Source of the DNA: a virus
Taxonomy: Duplodnaviria > Caudoviricetes
Direction: 5' to 3' (one strand)
Length of the DNA stretch: 32,429 nucleotides
IMG/VR virus record: IMGVR_UViG_3300032239_000837
Coordinates: 1-32,429 of that record
Under the pieces are notes generated by a model. It saw nothing but the letters and a program-made list of their open reading frames with translations. It did no database searches and was not told the origin of the DNA. A program made the translations under genes and the position numbers. Positions 4,179-22,910 of the stretch are shown here, piece by piece (the first letter of the stretch is position 1; the number at the start of each line of letters is the position of its first letter).

Positions 4179-6332
4179 ATGAAAAGCCCAAACATAACGT
4201 CGGGCAGGGCGCAAAAAGCGTCTGCTGGGTGGATGCATGGCGTCAATTCCGTCAGGCATCCATGGACGTTGCCTGAAGATCAGTTTAAGTGGGGCCAAAA
4301 TATCACCGTCAGGGGCGGCGTTGCTCAAACCCGATCTGGGTTCTCTATGCGGCTCAGTTTGCCGTCTGGTAACTTTCAGGGGGGCATCATATTCAACGCA
4401 AACAAACAGGCCCAAGCGGCCAGCTCTATCGTGAATCCCTCTGGGGTTCGCGTTTATCAGCAGGCGACCATTTATACTCCTGAGGGCACAGAATCGGCGG
4501 AAACCGAGCTTTCCTACCTGCTTTTCGCCGTTTCTGGAAAAGTGTACTACGCCCCGTTTCCGTTGACACAGCCAAAGCACTGGGGGGACTTTCAATTGAG
4601 CGGAATATCGCTCGATGCAAACGTAAACCGAGTAAACTTTGTGCTGGCGACGCAGTCTGCCCAAACCTCGTCCGGAGGCGACACTACCATCACTCCATCT
4701 CACCGTATTGTCGTAATTCAAGACGGCGTGGGTCGCCCTGCATGGTGGGATGGATCCAACAAGCAGGGGAGCCAAGTGTCCGACATTCCTTTGGGATTCT
4801 GGATGGCGTTTTCTGGCCAGCGGTTGTGGGTGGCAAACGGAAACATCATTTCAGCGTCCGATCTGGCAAACCCGTTAGGTTGGAAAGAACGCACAACTGG
4901 TTCAGGCAGAGGAGATTTTAGCGTCCCAAGACCGGTTACTGCAATGCAGGATTACGTTGGCCAAAACAACGACAGCCGGTTGTATGTGTTCACCGACCGA
5001 GCAACTTATTCTTTGGCGAGCGGCATCTTGGACAGGGCTCAGTGGGTAAACACAGCAAACTTTCAGAACGTGCTTTATCCGACCATCGGATGCATTGCGG
5101 GGAAGTCGATTGCGTTTCAAGCCGGTATGATGTGGTGGTACAGCGTTGGCGGACTTGTGTCTGCTGACGTTGCCGCGTCTTCTTACCTGTCATCACAGGT
5201 GCTTTACAAAGATATTGAAATGGCAAAGGCCAAGAGGCTCATGGCGGCCGATTTAAGCGGTATTTGCAGCGTCGCATTTGAGAACTACCTACTGTGCTCT
5301 GTGCCATACCTCGAACCGCTGAATTCCGTCACTATGGCCCTCGATTACGCCGCTGCGTCCGAGTGGAACCAGTCTCGCTCACCGGCATGGGCTGGCGTTT
5401 GGACTGGAATCAGGCCAATAGAGTGGGTTTCCGGCGTGATTGGGAACGAGCCACGCGTGTTTGCGCTTTCCGTTGATTACGGGGCCACAAACGACGGCTC
5501 TTTCAACCACGTTTGGGAGGCATTTCAGCCTCACAAGTACGACACTTACCTGAATATCAAGCAGGATGGCTCCACCGAGGAGTTAATCAACCGAATCTAC
5601 TGCCAGATGGAGACGGCGTTGCTTGGTGACGGAATGGATTTTAAGCAACTCGTGTACGGGGAGCTGGACTGCTCCCAGATCGCGGGAACTGTAGACGTCA
5701 AAGTGTCCTATCGTGGGCTTAAAGGCACTTATCAGCAAATCCTCAACACGAGGCTTCTCGCGGCCACAGACAGCTACCAGTACAAGACAAACATTCACGC
5801 CCCAGAGATCGACGCTCTTGGCTTTCTTCAAAGCCAGCACAGACGTCTTGTCACCGAGTCGGTAAACGCAACTTCCTCTCCAAAATCGTGCGAATCTGAC
5901 CTGTTGCTAAATATCGACAAAGCGTTTTCGTTTTTGATCGAATGGTGCGGGAGCTTGGGAATTGAAAGCATCCGAATGTTTCAAGACCCATGGCAGGACA
6001 AGAGCACCGGCCTTATCTCAAATCCGGAAACGCAGTACTGCACGCTTGGCGAAGACGGATCTACGGTTCAGGTCTTTTTGCCTCCGGCACCAAAAGAAAA
6101 CCCAGACACTCAAGCCACTGTTTGGTTCTCGACGCAGACTTTCACCGCTGTGAACAGTTGCCCCGCCGGAACTATCGATTCTCCGCCGGTTGCGGCCACA
6201 GCTACAGCGTCTGCGACGTCTTACATTTCGCAAGAGGACGCAAACGCTCAGGCTCTGGCAAAGGCGACGGCCGAAGCTCAGGTTGCTGCTCAAAATTACC
6301 GCTTGGCGCACCCATGCGGCCCAATTGCATAG
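4179..6332 (+). CDS. Tail nozzle/stabilisation protein (tail tubular B / P22 gp10-like) with a C-terminal Cys-flanked extension
   Basis: 717 aa; beta-rich with propeller-like strands (MAFSGQRLWVA..IISASDL; RLYVFTDRATY; GCIAGKSI); position after the adaptor-like gene; C-terminal SYISQEDANAQA segment. Confidence 0.7.
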   Translation: MKSPNITSGRAQKASAGWMHGVNSVRHPWTLPEDQFKWGQNITVRGGVAQTRSGFSMRLSLPSGNFQGGIIFNANKQAQAASSIVNPSGVRVYQQATIYTPEGTESAETELSYLLFAVSGKVYYAPFPLTQPKHWGDFQLSGISLDANVNRVNFVLATQSAQTSSGGDTTITPSHRIVVIQDGVGRPAWWDGSNKQGSQVSDIPLGFWMAFSGQRLWVANGNIISASDLANPLGWKERTTGSGRGDFSVPRPVTAMQDYVGQNNDSRLYVFTDRATYSLASGILDRAQWVNTANFQNVLYPTIGCIAGKSIAFQAGMMWWYSVGGLVSADVAASSYLSSQVLYKDIEMAKAKRLMAADLSGICSVAFENYLLCSVPYLEPLNSVTMALDYAAASEWNQSRSPAWAGVWTGIRPIEWVSGVIGNEPRVFALSVDYGATNDGSFNHVWEAFQPHKYDTYLNIKQDGSTEELINRIYCQMETALLGDGMDFKQLVYGELDCSQIAGTVDVKVSYRGLKGTYQQILNTRLLAATDSYQYKTNIHAPEIDALGFLQSQHRRLVTESVNATSSPKSCESDLLLNIDKAFSFLIEWCGSLGIESIRMFQDPWQDKSTGLISNPETQYCTLGEDGSTVQVFLPPAPKENPDTQATVWFSTQTFTAVNSCPAGTIDSPPVAATATASATSYISQEDANAQALAKATAEAQVAAQNYRLAHPCGPIA

Positions 6333-6334
6333 CC

Positions 6335-6577
6335 ATGCCATCCATCGTCACAGCGTCAAAGCCGGTCACCAGCTTCCCGAACCTTTACATCTCCCCATAC
6401 GGGAACGATGGCGTGATTCCTTTGTACTCCAGCATCCCGATCAACAATCAGACCGAGGGGCAGTGCTTGCCATGCGTCGTTTGCGGAAACTCCACCGTCC
6501 GCGCAAAAGTGATTGTCGCCGAAGCCTCAAAATCCCAGTCGCAAATTGACGACAAGCTGACCATCGGGGTATTCTAG
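6335..6577 (+). CDS. Small hypothetical virion-associated protein, 80 aa, with a CxxCxxC motif
   Basis: ATG two bases after the upstream TAG (TAGCCATG); MPSIVTAS...CLPCVVCG; fills the gap between neighbours. Confidence 0.7.
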   Translation: MPSIVTASKPVTSFPNLYISPYGNDGVIPLYSSIPINNQTEGQCLPCVVCGNSTVRAKVIVAEASKSQSQIDDKLTIGVF

Positions 6578-6970: not shown

Positions 6971-7993
6971 ATGGGCTCTTCCGTCGCACCCTCGAATTAC
7001 ATTTCGCCTCCAGACGTCACGCTTCAAGCTGCCGAACTGGGAATGCAGGCTGACATTGGCCGCCAGCAGGTGGCAAATAAAGACCGTCTGCTGGGGTATG
7101 CGGCACAAATGCCTTTGGAGAGCTGGACGCCCGATATTTGGGGCCAGAGCGGGATGCAAAACAAAGCCGCGCAGATAGCGGCCATCAACTCGTTTAAGTC
7201 GCGCCAGCTTGAACAGCAATTCAACCCTCAAATGGCTCAACTGAGGCAGCAATTGCCACAAATGATGATTGAGGACGCGTCTGGCAACGGCTGGCAGAAG
7301 CAGATGAACGATTGGGCAAAACACGCTGGCCTGACAAAAATGCTGGCGTCTGGGATGCAGGATTCAACGGTCGGGAAGTCTGCGTTTTTTGACGACGCAA
7401 CCATTCAGGGCCAAGCGATGAAACAAGCGCAGATGCAGCGTGCAGCCGCTTTGGTGGGAGCGAACCCCTCGCCTCAGGTTGGTCTCGACGCCGCGTCTAT
7501 TCTGGGCGCAGAGCAGGCCGGTGGTGCTCAGAATCTACAACAGCGTGCAGCATTCCGGAACGCTCTACAGGGCCAGACTCAGGCCGCTGCTCAGGGAACT
7601 ACCGACTGGATCAACAAAATGATGCAGTCCACCAATTCGGCATCCGAGGGATACCGAAAGGACTGGCAGAATTACCAGCAAGCGATGCTCGATGGAGCGC
7701 AGAAAAACGCAGATCGCCAGAACGCTCTTGTTGGCGCGGGCATTCAGGCGGCTGGCTCTATTGCTGGCGGAGCGATGGGAATGTGCTGGGTGGCTCGCGA
7801 GGTGTACGGAACAAAGACAGGAACGTGGAAAGTGTTCCGTTATTGGCTGCTTAACGAGGCTCCTGCGCCAATTCTGAATCTTTACGCAAAATACGGCGAG
7901 CGTGCTGCTGCGTTTATAGCGAATAAACCCACCCTGAAACTGGCGGTCAGGCTTTTGATGGACAAAATCATTCAAACTCAACTTGTTCGATAA
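6971..7993 (+). CDS. Internal virion/ejection protein with a C-terminal CWVAREVYG domain
   Basis: Gln/Ala-rich helical body; Gly/Ala hydrophobic stretch; then CWVAREVYG...FRYWL...LYAKYGER domain (7784-7990); MGSS start. Confidence 0.7.
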   Translation: MGSSVAPSNYISPPDVTLQAAELGMQADIGRQQVANKDRLLGYAAQMPLESWTPDIWGQSGMQNKAAQIAAINSFKSRQLEQQFNPQMAQLRQQLPQMMIEDASGNGWQKQMNDWAKHAGLTKMLASGMQDSTVGKSAFFDDATIQGQAMKQAQMQRAAALVGANPSPQVGLDAASILGAEQAGGAQNLQQRAAFRNALQGQTQAAAQGTTDWINKMMQSTNSASEGYRKDWQNYQQAMLDGAQKNADRQNALVGAGIQAAGSIAGGAMGMCWVAREVYGTKTGTWKVFRYWLLNEAPAPILNLYAKYGERAAAFIANKPTLKLAVRLLMDKIIQTQLVR

Positions 7994-7994
7994 T

Positions 7995-8492
7995 ATGGGA
8001 GGATCCAAAGCAGCCCCGCCGCCACCGGCACCAGACTACACTCCAATGGTGAAGGAGATTCGATTGATGCGTGAGCAGCAGGCGCACGCGTCAGACGACT
8101 CCGCGTTGGTGCAGAGAAAGGCGATGATTGACGCCCAGAACAACGCAGCACAGTTGGGAATGACTCAGTCCAACAACGCGGCGATGCAAGATTTGGCAAG
8201 AATGCAGCAATACCAGCAAACGCTGGACGCCAACGCTCTCGCTCAAAATCAATCGCAGGCGTCTGCAATGGGTCACGACGTTGTCGGAGGGTCTTTTGAC
8301 GTCAATGCGGCAAATCAAGCGAGGCTTGCCAATCTTGCCGGTGCTGCGTCTGCATACACTCCTTCTGTGTACAATTTGGCTGGGTCTAACCTCGATGTTC
8401 CGAACCCAGCAATGGCGTCGGTCGCGAAAAGCGCGGGGGCAAATAAATTCATCATGCCGCAAACTGGAGATCTTAAACTAGGAGGCTACTAA
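7995..8492 (+). CDS. Putative internal virion protein, GG-tail paralog 1
   Basis: TAATATG junction; starts MGGSKAAPPPPAPDY; ends NKFIMPQTGDLKLGGY. Confidence 0.75.
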   Translation: MGGSKAAPPPPAPDYTPMVKEIRLMREQQAHASDDSALVQRKAMIDAQNNAAQLGMTQSNNAAMQDLARMQQYQQTLDANALAQNQSQASAMGHDVVGGSFDVNAANQARLANLAGAASAYTPSVYNLAGSNLDVPNPAMASVAKSAGANKFIMPQTGDLKLGGY

Positions 8493-8493
8493 T

Positions 8494-9222
8494 ATGGGAG
8501 GAGCAGGAAGAGCAATATCGAAGGCGATCCCAAAGGAGATCACCAAAGCTATACCAAAAGAAATCGTTAAAGCGGTTCCTAAAGAAATTGCGCCAGTAAT
8601 GATGGTGACCGCCCCTTTTCTTGGGCCTGTAGGATTAGCTACTGGCGCAATTGGAGCCGCGTCCATGCAAACGCAAGCAAACGCGGCGGAAGCGGCCGCA
8701 AAAGCCAAAGCTGAAGCTGACGCAAAGGCCGCCGCCGACGCTCAGGCCGCTGCTGATGCAAAAGCCGCTGCTGATGCAAAAGCCGCTGCTGATGCAAAAG
8801 CCGCCGCTGACGCCGCTGCTGCTGCTGAAAAGGCGAGACTTGAAAACCAAACGCAGTCCGGAATAAAGGCACCCATCGTCACAACGCCAATGACGAGTAT
8901 GCCTACGGCCATCAGTTCGACCGTAATGCCTACGGTTACACCTCCTCCTAACCTCACTGACCAGCAAATCGCCGGTGGGTACGGGTCTGGAAACTACGTT
9001 TCTGGGAACGCGTCGTCTTCCCTGAATTACGCGCCAACCAGCACGCCTGCATCAACAACGTCGCCAGCAACTGGGCTCGTGAAAGGCGGTGGACAATTAC
9101 AGTACAACACGCAATTGGCAAAACCCAATCCGGCCGCAATGGCAAATGCCAATATCACAGCATCAAACCAGTTTACGCTTCCTTCAATGGAAAACGTAGG
9201 CATCACATTTGGAGGTAACTAA
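8494..9222 (+). CDS. Putative internal virion protein, GG-tail paralog 2
   Basis: MGGAG start; KAIPKEI x3; hydrophobic segment; ADAKAA repeats; ends NQFTLPSMENVGITFGGN. Confidence 0.8.
   Translation: MGGAGRAISKAIPKEITKAIPKEIVKAVPKEIAPVMMVTAPFLGPVGLATGAIGAASMQTQANAAEAAAKAKAEADAKAAADAQAAADAKAAADAKAAADAKAAADAAAAAEKARLENQTQSGIKAPIVTTPMTSMPTAISSTVMPTVTPPPNLTDQQIAGGYGSGNYVSGNASSSLNYAPTSTPASTTSPATGLVKGGGQLQYNTQLAKPNPAAMANANITASNQFTLPSMENVGITFGGN
8746..8799 (+). repeat. In-frame 18-nt tandem repeat GCCGCTGCTGATGCAAAA x3 (AAADAK)
   Basis: Three exact copies with degenerate flanking copies. Confidence 0.9.
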
Positions 9223-9224
9223 AC

Positions 9225-9788
9225 ATGGGCGGAGCAGCAAAATCAGTAGGTCGCTTTGTTTCAAAGGCGATTCCGAAAGAAATAAAAAAGGCCATTCCTA
9301 ACGAAATTGCCAAAGCGGTTCCGAAAGAGATTGCTGGGGCTGTGCCTTTGCTTGGGCCTATTCTCGTTGCTAAAAATTATGACGCCGCTGTGGCGTCAGC
9401 TCAAAAAGCAGCAGATTCCGCCGCCGCAACTCAGGCAACTGCCGATCCTGATGTCGTCGTTCAATCAACTATGGCTGGTGGGGTTCCTCAATCCACCGGA
9501 ATGAAGTCGAATATTGATTCGGCGATCCCAATCATTTCGAGCCCAATTGCCCCTACACTTAACTACAGCACCGGATCTGCTCCGACCTCTTCTGCGCCTG
9601 TTTCAATGACGCAAGTCACAGGCCCATCTCAATACGGCACGACTGCTGGATATACGCCTGTCAATCAAGCAAACCCAGCCGCAATTGCTCAAGCACAGCA
9701 ACAACAACAGCAGGCAGTAAAGCCTGCAAACTCTGCTTCTGGGTTTACGCTCCCAAACACGCAGGGGTTGACATTTGGAGGAAGTTAA
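9225..9788 (+). CDS. Putative internal virion protein, GG-tail paralog 3
   Basis: MGGAA start; KAIP(K/N)EI x3; ends GFTLPNTQGLTFGGS. Confidence 0.8.
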   Translation: MGGAAKSVGRFVSKAIPKEIKKAIPNEIAKAVPKEIAGAVPLLGPILVAKNYDAAVASAQKAADSAAATQATADPDVVVQSTMAGGVPQSTGMKSNIDSAIPIISSPIAPTLNYSTGSAPTSSAPVSMTQVTGPSQYGTTAGYTPVNQANPAAIAQAQQQQQQAVKPANSASGFTLPNTQGLTFGGS

Positions 9789-9789
9789 T

Positions 9790-10725
9790 ATGGGAAGTTC
9801 AATTTCTAGAAGATTTAGTGGTAGATTCAACCCTGCACCTTTGAGGCCAAGCCCAAAAGGCAGGCGTCAATCAACCCCTAGCCCAGCCCCAGCTTTGGCT
9901 GCTCCGACTACACCGGCCGCTCCGGCTACACCGGCTGCTCCGGCACCAAACGCCACGCTTTCAAATGGAACAACGGTGACGCCGACCGGAGCAATTGGAG
10001 CAACCACTGGCAGTGCTCCTCTTGGGACTGCTCCTACTACCACAACTCCGACAACGCTTACGCCGTCAACTCCGACGCCAAGTCCAAGCACTGTGGTTTC
10101 GAGTGGCGTTGCAACAACTCCGACGTCAACGACCGCACCGACAACCGCGACTTCTACAGGCTCAACAAACGTCACAACGCCGTCTACAACTCAAGTTTCG
10201 GCTCCGGTCGGCACTACCGTCAGCTCAACAACTGGAGCTACAAACGTCACAAATCCAAGCTCGCTGACGTTAAATCCAAACTCGCTGACGTTAAATCCAA
10301 ACTCGTTGATTTTTAATCCAAGTTTGACTCCATCCAATCAGCTTTCATTGCTTCCGAATTCTGGGATAAGCGTCGGGCCAATGATGGGGCCATTCTTGAA
10401 TCCAAACTATCAAAACATGGTTCAGGGGCCAATCTACCAGCCGCCTGCCACAATTCAGAACCCCACTACGCCGGTTGCAAACACTCCAGCCGCTGGCGGA
10501 AATAATGCTTCTGGCCCTGTTGCAGTGGCGTCTGGCGTAAAGCCAATCACAGCCGCTGCTACAGCCGCTACAAACACCGTCACGCCCACTCCAAACACCG
10601 GAGGGGCTGGGGGAACTACAACGGCCGCGCAAACGGCCGCTGCTCGCGCAAATCAAAACGTGGCAAGCAACGTGAACCAGTTTACGATGCCATCAATGCA
10701 GGGAATCACATTCGGAGGATCCTAA
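9790..10725 (+). CDS. Putative internal virion protein, GG-tail paralog 4 (Thr/Pro-rich, low complexity)
   Basis: TAATATG junction; MGSSISRR start; ends NQFTMPSMQGITFGGS. Confidence 0.8.
   Translation: MGSSISRRFSGRFNPAPLRPSPKGRRQSTPSPAPALAAPTTPAAPATPAAPAPNATLSNGTTVTPTGAIGATTGSAPLGTAPTTTTPTTLTPSTPTPSPSTVVSSGVATTPTSTTAPTTATSTGSTNVTTPSTTQVSAPVGTTVSSTTGATNVTNPSSLTLNPNSLTLNPNSLIFNPSLTPSNQLSLLPNSGISVGPMMGPFLNPNYQNMVQGPIYQPPATIQNPTTPVANTPAAGGNNASGPVAVASGVKPITAAATAATNTVTPTPNTGGAGGTTTAAQTAAARANQNVASNVNQFTMPSMQGITFGGS
10252..10326 (+). repeat. In-frame 21-nt tandem repeat (NP(S/N)SLTL), about 3.5 copies
   Basis: AATCCAA(G/A)CTCGCTGACGTTA units at 10252, 10273 and 10294, with a partial copy at 10315. 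Confidence 0.85.
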
Positions 10726-20749: not shown

Positions 20750-20932
20750 ATGCCTGCCTTTCCAGCAGATATGACCGGAGATACCGGCGACACAAGCGAA
20801 GACCTACAACTCGTCATTCAAATGTATGAGGAGAAATTGGGACGCCCACTGACAGTCGAAGAACACTTCAAAATCTCAACCATGTTCAACGCCAACATTG
20901 GCGGGAACGCATCAATCCTTACTGAAGAATGA
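20750..20932 (+). CDS. Small acidic hypothetical protein, 60 aa
   Basis: Coupled on both sides (TGATATG upstream, ATGA overlap downstream). Confidence 0.65.
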   Translation: MPAFPADMTGDTGDTSEDLQLVIQMYEEKLGRPLTVEEHFKISTMFNANIGGNASILTEE

Positions 20933-22203
20933 AAGACCCTAAAGACGTAGTCGCTCTGGTAGTAGATAACGGCCTGTTTGTAGAAATGGCCATCAAATTG
21001 GCTAAGACATTTAAGAAGGTGTACTATTTCACGGAATGGCGTAGCGCATTTCCAAAACTCAATCTGGCCCGCATTGGGGGCGGCGTTGACGATATCGAGA
21101 TCGTCACTAACCCATTCACCGCAGAGCTTCTAAAGGAAGTGGACTTTTACATATTCCCCGACGTGTACCACGGTCACGAGCAGGTGATGCTGCAAGACCA
21201 CTTTGGGAAGGTTGTGTGGGGAAGCCGACTTGGTGAAGTGCTGGAGCTGGACAGGGTCGGCATGAAAGAAATCCTGCGAGCATTGCAAATGCCTGTCGGC
21301 CAGTACACGGTCGTGAAGGGCATTGAAGAGCTGCGGGATTACCTCAAGTCTCACGATAACGTGTTTGTGAAGATCAACTGCTACAGGGGGACGTTTGAGA
21401 CGTTCCACTCGCCGTGCTACGATCTGGTCGAACCAAAGCTCGACGAAGTTGAATGGCAGCTTGGATGGTTCAAAGATGAAATCGAGTTCATCGTGGAAGC
21501 CGCCCTCGACAATCGCATCGAATTCGGGACTGACGCGTGGACAATTGCCGGTGAATACCCGTCCAAGATCATTTCCGGCATCGAGGTTAAAGACTGCGGT
21601 TTTGCCAGTTGCTTTGGCGATTACGCCAAAATTCCGGAGCCACTACGCCGATTTAATGACCGCATGGTTTCTGTCTTCCGTGAGTACAACTACAGAGGCT
21701 TTTTCTCGTCTGAGATTCGCATCGGCTCAGATCACCGACCGTACATGATCGACTTTTGCGCCCGCGCTCCGAGCCCTCCCAACGAGCTGTACCAAGAACA
21801 GTACAAAAATCTCGCTGAGTGTATGTGGTACGGGGCAAACGGCATTGTCATCGATCCTGAGCCGGTCGCAAAATACGGCGCGGAGATCATGCTGCATTCT
21901 TCGTGGGCGGATAAAAACTGGCTGTCGCTCAAGTTTCCAGATCACCTCCGAAACTTTGTTAAACTGCGGAATATCTACTACTCTGACACGCGTGGGTACG
22001 GAGTCATTCCGCAGGCTCAGGGGCTGCCAGAGGTCGGGGCCGTTGTCGGGCTTGGCAACACGCTGGAGGAGGCGTTTGATCATGCCCTCGCAAACGCGGA
22101 GGAGGTCGGAGGCTATTACCTCGAAGGAAAGACCGGCGCGATTGAGCAGGTCAAAGAGCAGATTGAAAAGATGAAGGCTCTGGGTTTGTCTACGTTTGAA
22201 TGA
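20929..22203 (+). CDS. ATP-grasp ligase, divergent PurD (GAR synthetase)-like
   Basis: LELDRVGMKEIL..MP; VFVK; FIVEAAL..IEF; YRGFFSSEIRI...PYMIDFCARAPSP. These align by eye with PurD LEGSK..IP, IVIK, IEEFL and YTGFLYAGLMI...IEFNCRFGDP. Confidence 0.8.
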   Translation: MKDPKDVVALVVDNGLFVEMAIKLAKTFKKVYYFTEWRSAFPKLNLARIGGGVDDIEIVTNPFTAELLKEVDFYIFPDVYHGHEQVMLQDHFGKVVWGSRLGEVLELDRVGMKEILRALQMPVGQYTVVKGIEELRDYLKSHDNVFVKINCYRGTFETFHSPCYDLVEPKLDEVEWQLGWFKDEIEFIVEAALDNRIEFGTDAWTIAGEYPSKIISGIEVKDCGFASCFGDYAKIPEPLRRFNDRMVSVFREYNYRGFFSSEIRIGSDHRPYMIDFCARAPSPPNELYQEQYKNLAECMWYGANGIVIDPEPVAKYGAEIMLHSSWADKNWLSLKFPDHLRNFVKLRNIYYSDTRGYGVIPQAQGLPEVGAVVGLGNTLEEAFDHALANAEEVGGYYLEGKTGAIEQVKEQIEKMKALGLSTFE

Positions 22204-22910
22204 GAATCGAAATCAAAACAGTCCCACCGGCGGCGATGCGTTATCCGACCGCCGGTGATTGGGAGTGGCTCCCAGACGGGGCTCTCAAGCTCACAGTGCC
22301 TGACTACGGCACGAGCGACGAGAGTGCCCTGCTGGTTGCGATACATGAAATGGTTGAGGCGTTTCTGTGCAAGCGCGATGGCGTTACCGACGAGGAGGTT
22401 ACGCGCTTTGATACAGAGAACCCAAAGCTGGAAGAGCCTGGGGATGACCCACTTGCGCCTTATCACAAGCAGCATACCGTAGCTATGGCCATTGAGCGCG
22501 ACGGTGCCATAGGGTTTGGCGTAGATTGGCATAAACACAACCAGTGGGTGACCAACGCCGGAAACGAGGTTGAGAGGCTCTGGTACGCCAAAGAACTCCA
22601 GCAATCGAGGATCCTGATGCAGGGGCCGAGATACTGGGCAGAGCTACACTTGTACGCCATGAGAGTGGACGACCAAGCAATTCCGTTGCAGGACGTCCGC
22701 TATTGGCTGGACGATTGGATGCGCTCGCTTCCGTTTGATGGGTGCCCCTGCGAGAAGCATCTTAAAGAATGGGTCTCTGAAAACCCTCCCACCTACATCG
22801 AGTTCTTTCACTGGACAGTAAACTTGCACAATGCAGTAAACGAACGACTGTTTAAGCCGACCCTCTCTGTTGCCGACTCGCGGAAGCTGTGGGAGAGTAG
22901 GCTTTTCTGA
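22200..22910 (+). CDS. Fusion of an N-terminal HExxE metal-binding/peptidase-like domain and a C-terminal Erv1/Alr-like sulfhydryl oxidase domain
   Basis: IHEMVE (22344) and YHKQH; then GPRYWAELH, LPFDGCPCEKH and WTVNLHNAVNERLFKP. Confidence 0.7.
   Translation: MRIEIKTVPPAAMRYPTAGDWEWLPDGALKLTVPDYGTSDESALLVAIHEMVEAFLCKRDGVTDEEVTRFDTENPKLEEPGDDPLAPYHKQHTVAMAIERDGAIGFGVDWHKHNQWVTNAGNEVERLWYAKELQQSRILMQGPRYWAELHLYAMRVDDQAIPLQDVRYWLDDWMRSLPFDGCPCEKHLKEWVSENPPTYIEFFHWTVNLHNAVNERLFKPTLSVADSRKLWESRLF

Follow-up and report, generated by a model that had tools for sequence, protein, structure and literature searches.

The DNA studied here (the window) is the whole 32,429-nucleotide IMG/VR virus record IMGVR_UViG_3300032239_000837. 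It is a fragment of an uncultured tailed bacteriophage: the record, which is 52% complete, carries virion genes together with genes for Sak4, RusA and a DnaC-like protein, and its complete syntenic relatives are records of 61-64 kb with terminase, endolysin and tail fibre genes, two of them with direct terminal repeats. Where the virion block ends, small variable genes surround a single open reading frame (ORF) of 236 amino acids (aa), which encodes an N-terminal HExxE domain (H49-E50-x-x-E53) and a C-terminal domain of the Erv/ALR sulfhydryl oxidase type (Table 1), a family of flavin enzymes with which eukaryotes and giant viruses introduce disulfide bonds. A preliminary description of this DNA had noticed the Erv-like motifs, a CxC in place of the usual CxxC and the fusion to the HExxE domain. 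The translated ORF bears this out, with all three Erv motifs in frame (G142 at position 22623, C182-P183-C184 at 22743-22751 and W205 at 22812).

The profile PF04777 (Evr1_Alr) of Pfam, with which the preliminary description had suggested checking the assignment, scored 34.4 bits with the whole protein and 38.3 bits with the C-terminal 96 residues, the curated cut-off being 27.6 bits. When PDB sequences were searched with the protein using phmmer, all 14 matches listed were Erv/ALR proteins, the best being pB119L of African swine fever virus (ASFV; expectation value (E) 1.5e-10). Structure prediction, which had also been suggested, gave a four-helix bundle followed by a short fifth helix, as in Erv/ALR (PF04777). 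In an alignment of 73 homologs the residues forming the flavin adenine dinucleotide (FAD) pocket of the Erv family (G, W and H of helix 1; W, H, N, V, N and R of helix 4; the C-terminal W; roles as given in the accessible part of PMC4721541) are present in 71-72 of the 73 rows, and the helix 1 positions G142, W146, H150, E148 and R155 are kept in 72, 72, 72, 73 and 72 rows, respectively. FAD binding by the phage domain is likely.

C182, P183 and C184 are each kept in 71/73 rows, so the one-residue cysteine spacer is not a sequencing error. H187 is likewise kept in 71 rows. The usual position of the first cysteine after the proline is occupied by F179, and C184 appears to lie at the start of helix 3, like the flavin-proximal cysteine. 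These two cysteines are the only ones in the domain; the CX16C structural disulfide and the shuttle pair of cellular Erv1/ALR are absent. Since C-x-x-C-x-x-H, with the flavin-proximal CxxC signature, was found in none of the 73 rows, we class the domain as an Erv/ALR variant that likely works like Erv, rather than as a canonical member.

Table 1. Features of the window around the Erv gene and in the tail block (pLDDT, predicted local distance difference test; pTM, predicted template modelling score)
Feature	Position	Strand	Remarks
717-aa tail-block protein, 10 Cys; candidate substrate	4179..6332	+	
80-aa gene with C-x2-C-x2-C, directly behind the tail-block protein; further candidate substrate	6335..6577	+	
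424-aa likely PurD-like ATP-grasp ligase	20929..22203	+	stop overlaps Erv gene start (ATGA)
Two-domain gene: zincin-like HExxE domain and Erv/ALR-fold domain	22200..22910	+	predicted model pLDDT 94.8, pTM 0.86
N-terminal zincin-like domain	22200..22598	+	likely metal site H49, E50, E53, H92, E99; also stand-alone beside PurD-like ligases
Erv/ALR-fold domain, aa 141-236	22620..22907	+	four helices and a short fifth
Helix 1: G142, W146, H150 flavin pocket (by alignment); E148, R155 predicted cross-subunit pair	22623..22664	+	
C182-P183-C184-x-x-H187 dithiol	22743..22760	+	PDB-match alignment, 73-row alignment, predicted model
W205-x4-H210-N211-x-V213-N214-x-R216 ... W231, adenine-side FAD motif	22812..22892	+	each named position 71-72/73 rows

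The best PDB match, the compact viral sulfhydryl oxidase pB119L (PDB 3gwl), has P-C-x-x-C, whereas the phage protein has CxC and a three-residue insert, stands in a bacteriophage context and carries the N-terminal zincin-like fusion. The predicted dimer of the phage domain forms via helices 1-2, and E148/R155 were taken from its contact list; the pB119L dimer uses another surface. Modelled as a homodimer, the isolated Erv domain scored 0.50 against 0.00 for the best control, possibly reflecting the model's memory of solved Erv dimers; the homodimer mark is reached by 20/30 pairs and 1/23 single chains. Yeast Erv1 and Erv2, mammalian ALR and mimivirus R596 (all PF04777) differ from the phage domain by their CxxC, CX16C structural disulfide and shuttle pair. 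According to the accessible part of PMC3509050, what defines Erv enzymes is their fold, the binding of the cofactor and the cysteines of the active site, CxC is known in cellular Ervs solely as a shuttle motif, and many viral Ervs likewise lack the shuttle. The same Cys-Pro-Cys tripeptide serves as redox dithiol in Mia40, a protein of different fold (PMC4019985, accessible part); as the middle proline is not kept across the wider set of CxC Ervs, this likeness is probably convergent.

By analogy with Erv1/ALR, substrate thiols would reduce the C182-C184 disulfide, C184 would hand the electrons to FAD, and the flavin would be reoxidised by O2 or another acceptor; the insert after P178 is predicted to shift the first cysteine, letting the CxC ring close. 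We consider it probable that the domain is an active thiol oxidase. To the fuller proposal, that it is a dimeric FAD-dependent thiol oxidase which puts disulfides into cysteine-bearing virion proteins, cross-linking them during assembly in the host cytoplasm, we assign a probability of roughly 0.55.

Evidence for virion substrates comes mainly from other phage lineages. In 16 of 21 phage-type loci (13 recognised by PHROG phage-gene matches, the others by visual judgement) the gene immediately upstream of Erv contains 3.9-9.1% cysteine, compared with 0.4-1.4% in other ORFs; the upstream gene of the remaining five has 0.5-3.0%. CxC and CxxC Ervs occupy the same slot behind these cysteine-rich tail genes. 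A siphovirus lineage was sampled through a different tail-block (anchor) gene, taking the best 80 of 115 loci, and a gene with 25-39 cysteines was followed by Erv in all 39 loci with at least 2.3 kb downstream, 38 of which were parsed as CxC. The cysteine count of this tail-block gene is odd in 44/45 complete copies and in 11/12 below 50% identity, which fits gain and loss of cysteines in pairs with one spare. Paired change points to disulfides, paired metal ligands being an alternative. The copy of this 25-39 Cys protein that was tested (examples: L148:4466-5860, L145:4589-5896, L362-L441) had no Pfam or PHROG match. For such lineages the suggestion of the preliminary description that the phage makes its own cytoplasmic disulfides is well supported; for the window's own family it is less well supported, half of the near-complete relatives lacking Erv while keeping their tail cysteines, as described below.

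The variant is widespread. A domain profile search among 1.84 billion sequences yielded 5,171 representatives at E <= 0.001, and in the best 150 of these a simple parser found CxC in 93, CxxC in 49, both in one and neither in seven; the middle residue was of 14 kinds. Among the carriers of CxC Ervs are unrelated tailed phages that have genes for tape measure, head or portal; three such phages are IMG/VR proviruses (motif parsed in two). Giant-virus contigs (L156-L159) also have CxC Ervs, stand-alone and placed near phage-type sequences on weak trees. In a 51-row, 90-column tree, made with the motif columns dropped and with one long branch and rows of unknown origin left out, CxC and CxxC switched at least six times among the 50 labelled rows; a quick tree of 192 rows placed the groups differently. 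Such domain trees (90-94 columns, no eukaryotic sequences) are unstable between runs, and we therefore claim no direction of transfer among phages, giant viruses and eukaryotes. A single scan of prokaryote genomes (GTDB) confirmed one match, returned without its locus. Fusions to larger domains are seen in other phage Ervs (L204:5173-6156, L218:6800-7906, L244:6725-8572, L169:5849-7273 and P0093, the last with a weak match to glycosyltransferase family 8).

The window itself offers two candidate substrates (Table 1), the 717-aa tail-block protein and the 80-aa product of the next gene, whose family is present in 13/13 relatives compared; eight other structural genes of the window have 0-3 cysteines each. 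Two further cysteine-bearing groups were seen in the relatives: a conserved 193-aa gene with about eight cysteines just before the portal-like gene (L276:2815-3399, L272:15725-16330; family in 13/13 relatives), and tail-fibre genes with short conserved cysteine motifs at their start.

Several observations weigh against the proposal. On the enzyme side, these are the missing CxxC, the failure to find any characterised Erv with CxC next to the flavin, the loss of both active-site cysteines in one homolog (P0060), the interrupted reading frame of another (L031), and the presence of FAD in the complex model as an unscored ligand. The 39 siphovirus loci belong to one lineage, and with anchor genes 72-100% identical they are not independent. 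In the window's family no cysteine-rich gene adjoins Erv, the upstream genes having 0.2-2.3% cysteine (9/11 rows with one called). Relatives were picked by the tail protein (80 loci), the 25 on the longest contigs were searched for Erv, and from five of the ten that are at least 90% complete it is missing; a Pfam scan of these five, run without a positive control, also gave 0/5. In the 717-aa protein eight of the ten cysteine positions are cysteine in all five Erv-lacking genomes, and the same eight are cysteine in 7-8 of the 8 Erv-bearing ones, so Erv is not required for those cysteines.

The lack of Erv in relatives that keep the tail cysteines would also suit the view that Erv is in this family an active but accessory oxidase with targets outside the virion (a thiol of the host, some small molecule or a regulatory protein of the phage); the cysteines of the virion would then become oxidised of their own accord once the cell has lysed, or would hold metal. 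The variable surroundings of the gene agree with it, as does the possibility of spontaneous disulfide formation in phages raised in the accessible part of PMC13576161. Moreover, when the 8 Erv-bearing genomes were compared with the 5 lacking it, no clearly real gene family of at least four genomes, Erv itself apart, was present in all of the former and none of the latter, as an Erv-specific substrate would be. An accessory gene, however, would hardly be expected to outlast loss of the neighbouring ligase gene and decay of its own fused domain, or to be tied to cysteine-rich tail genes in other lineages. All 13 near-complete family genomes compared, furthermore, carry Erv, a DUF6171 gene or both. 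On balance we regard the accessory view as rather unlikely.

DUF6171, an 80-aa cysteine-rich protein, was present in 5/5 Erv-lacking and 1/8 Erv-bearing genomes of the above comparison, and in 5/5 and 1/26, respectively, of the near-complete records of a wider sample (63 records, 31 near-complete; the 26 were chosen for having Erv). Under the main proposal, the oxidase step would be dispensable in this family or replaceable, possibly by DUF6171. Here too there are contrary signs: only two independent Erv/DUF6171 switches can be counted when the tree is built from the 800-aa portal-like protein (sign test p 0.5), and a DUF6171 homolog in a cultured cyanophage sits among cysteine-poor genes. Replacement of Erv by DUF6171 is a lead rather than a result. 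An example of the gene is L444:4594-4836 (G020); others are in G024, G028, G029, G032, G018 and G023, the last being the only case beside cysteine-rich tail genes. In 14 metagenome loci it lies mostly shortly before a terminase-like gene.

Could the CxC form have ceased to be an O2-linked oxidase and become a flavin-binding reductase, an isomerase, a redox sensor or a C-x-C-x-x-H metal site? The departure from the CxxC signature, the differing strain and potential of a CxC ring and the retention of H187 would be compatible with this. Conservation of the entire flavin pocket speaks against it, and pB119L, by alignment, also has C-x-x-H from the proximal cysteine; CxC and CxxC forms, as noted, share one gene slot. 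We consider such a change of function improbable.

An even less probable explanation is that Erv acts within a ligase/HExxE module, for example as the oxidase of a thiol which the ATP-grasp ligase and the zincin-like domain produce or set free. It draws on the fusion, found in the 73 aligned homologs, and on the overlap of the reading frame with the ligase stop. The behaviour of the parts argues otherwise. HExxE was intact in 31/31 fused loci with the ligase and lost in 14/18 without it, CPC being kept, so Erv persists after ligase loss and decay of the N-domain; stand-alone CPC Ervs exist (L067-L070), as do ligases with a stand-alone N-domain and no Erv (G018, G020), and stand-alone N-domains beside the ligase were also seen in unrelated phages. 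As the HExxE domain tracks the ligase, it probably belongs with it, and its fusion to the oxidase is probably incidental; the domain may be a passenger serving the ligase.

The N-domain had no match among Pfam and PDB sequences. In place of the HExxH of zincin metallopeptidases it has HExxE with invariant H92 and E99, that is, a distal His and Glu, which distinguishes it from minimal zincins such as selecase (4qhf), YbeY (1oz9), PprI/IrrE (8sln) and abylysin (4jiu). The 424-aa gene itself had no match in Pfam (including GARS_A) or PDB; its assignment is indirect, through a BLAST match (E 0.002) to a GARS_A-positive (43 bits) neighbour of a stand-alone N-domain. PurD-like ATP-grasp genes and HExxE zincin-like domains are a recurrent pair among the virion genes of unrelated phages (window 20929-22203; L055-L078), and in L128 (3098-5449) the ATP-grasp gene gave weak matches to intein and LAGLIDADG profiles.

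An artefact (chance motif, CxxC misread in sequencing, or phage contig into which a piece of a giant virus was wrongly assembled), for which the lack of a real match in 50,697 cultured phage records might speak, is refuted by the motif in 71/73 rows and the syntenic copies in complete, terminally redundant phage records of 61-64 kb. The tblastn search of those cultured phages with the Erv domain gave just two weak TetR matches (E 0.7). A second CxC query hit one record (L493; BTJB01000001.1, 620 kb, 'Mollyvirus', filed under Caudoviricetes) at a C-x-x-C gene, ml_435; the record has two adjacent Erv-like genes, and we did not count it as a phage Erv. Judging by its ml_ gene names, the record is probably a giant virus filed in the wrong place.

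No paper on a phage Erv, on an Erv with a CxC active site or on DUF6171 was found in the literature searched (mostly outside subscription journals, without supplements). In their accessible parts, PMC10598087 (2023) gives CxxC as the Erv signature and notes no bacterial Erv homologs, and by the account of PMC13576161 (2026) a dedicated oxidase has yet to be described for bacteriophages. Phage tails and virions cross-linked by disulfides are at present being solved. With a compact phage Erv, disulfide formation by phages in the reducing cytoplasm becomes directly testable; the protein also adds, with its CxC, an active-site spacing for which we found no characterised example, bears on the origin of giant-virus Ervs, and might be used as a bacterial-adapted tool for cytoplasmic disulfide proteins. 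More tentatively, many uncultured tailed phages may encode a cytoplasmic disulfide machinery as poxviruses do, a CxC Erv FAD oxidase cross-linking cysteine-rich tail proteins before lysis and DUF6171 serving as an unrelated stand-in in genomes without Erv. If this is true, Erv oxidases belong to phages as much as to eukaryotes, and giant viruses share them.

Two minor observations concern the phage genomes. Upstream of the genes for likely ejection proteins of 868 and 2470 aa, the window encodes four consecutive cysteine-free, low-complexity proteins (7983-10725), three of which have MGG or MGS close to their N-terminus; three end in FGG-x. The 94-kb contig G034 contains two distinct copies of the fused gene (L001/L008 and L002/L009) and is possibly a chimeric assembly.
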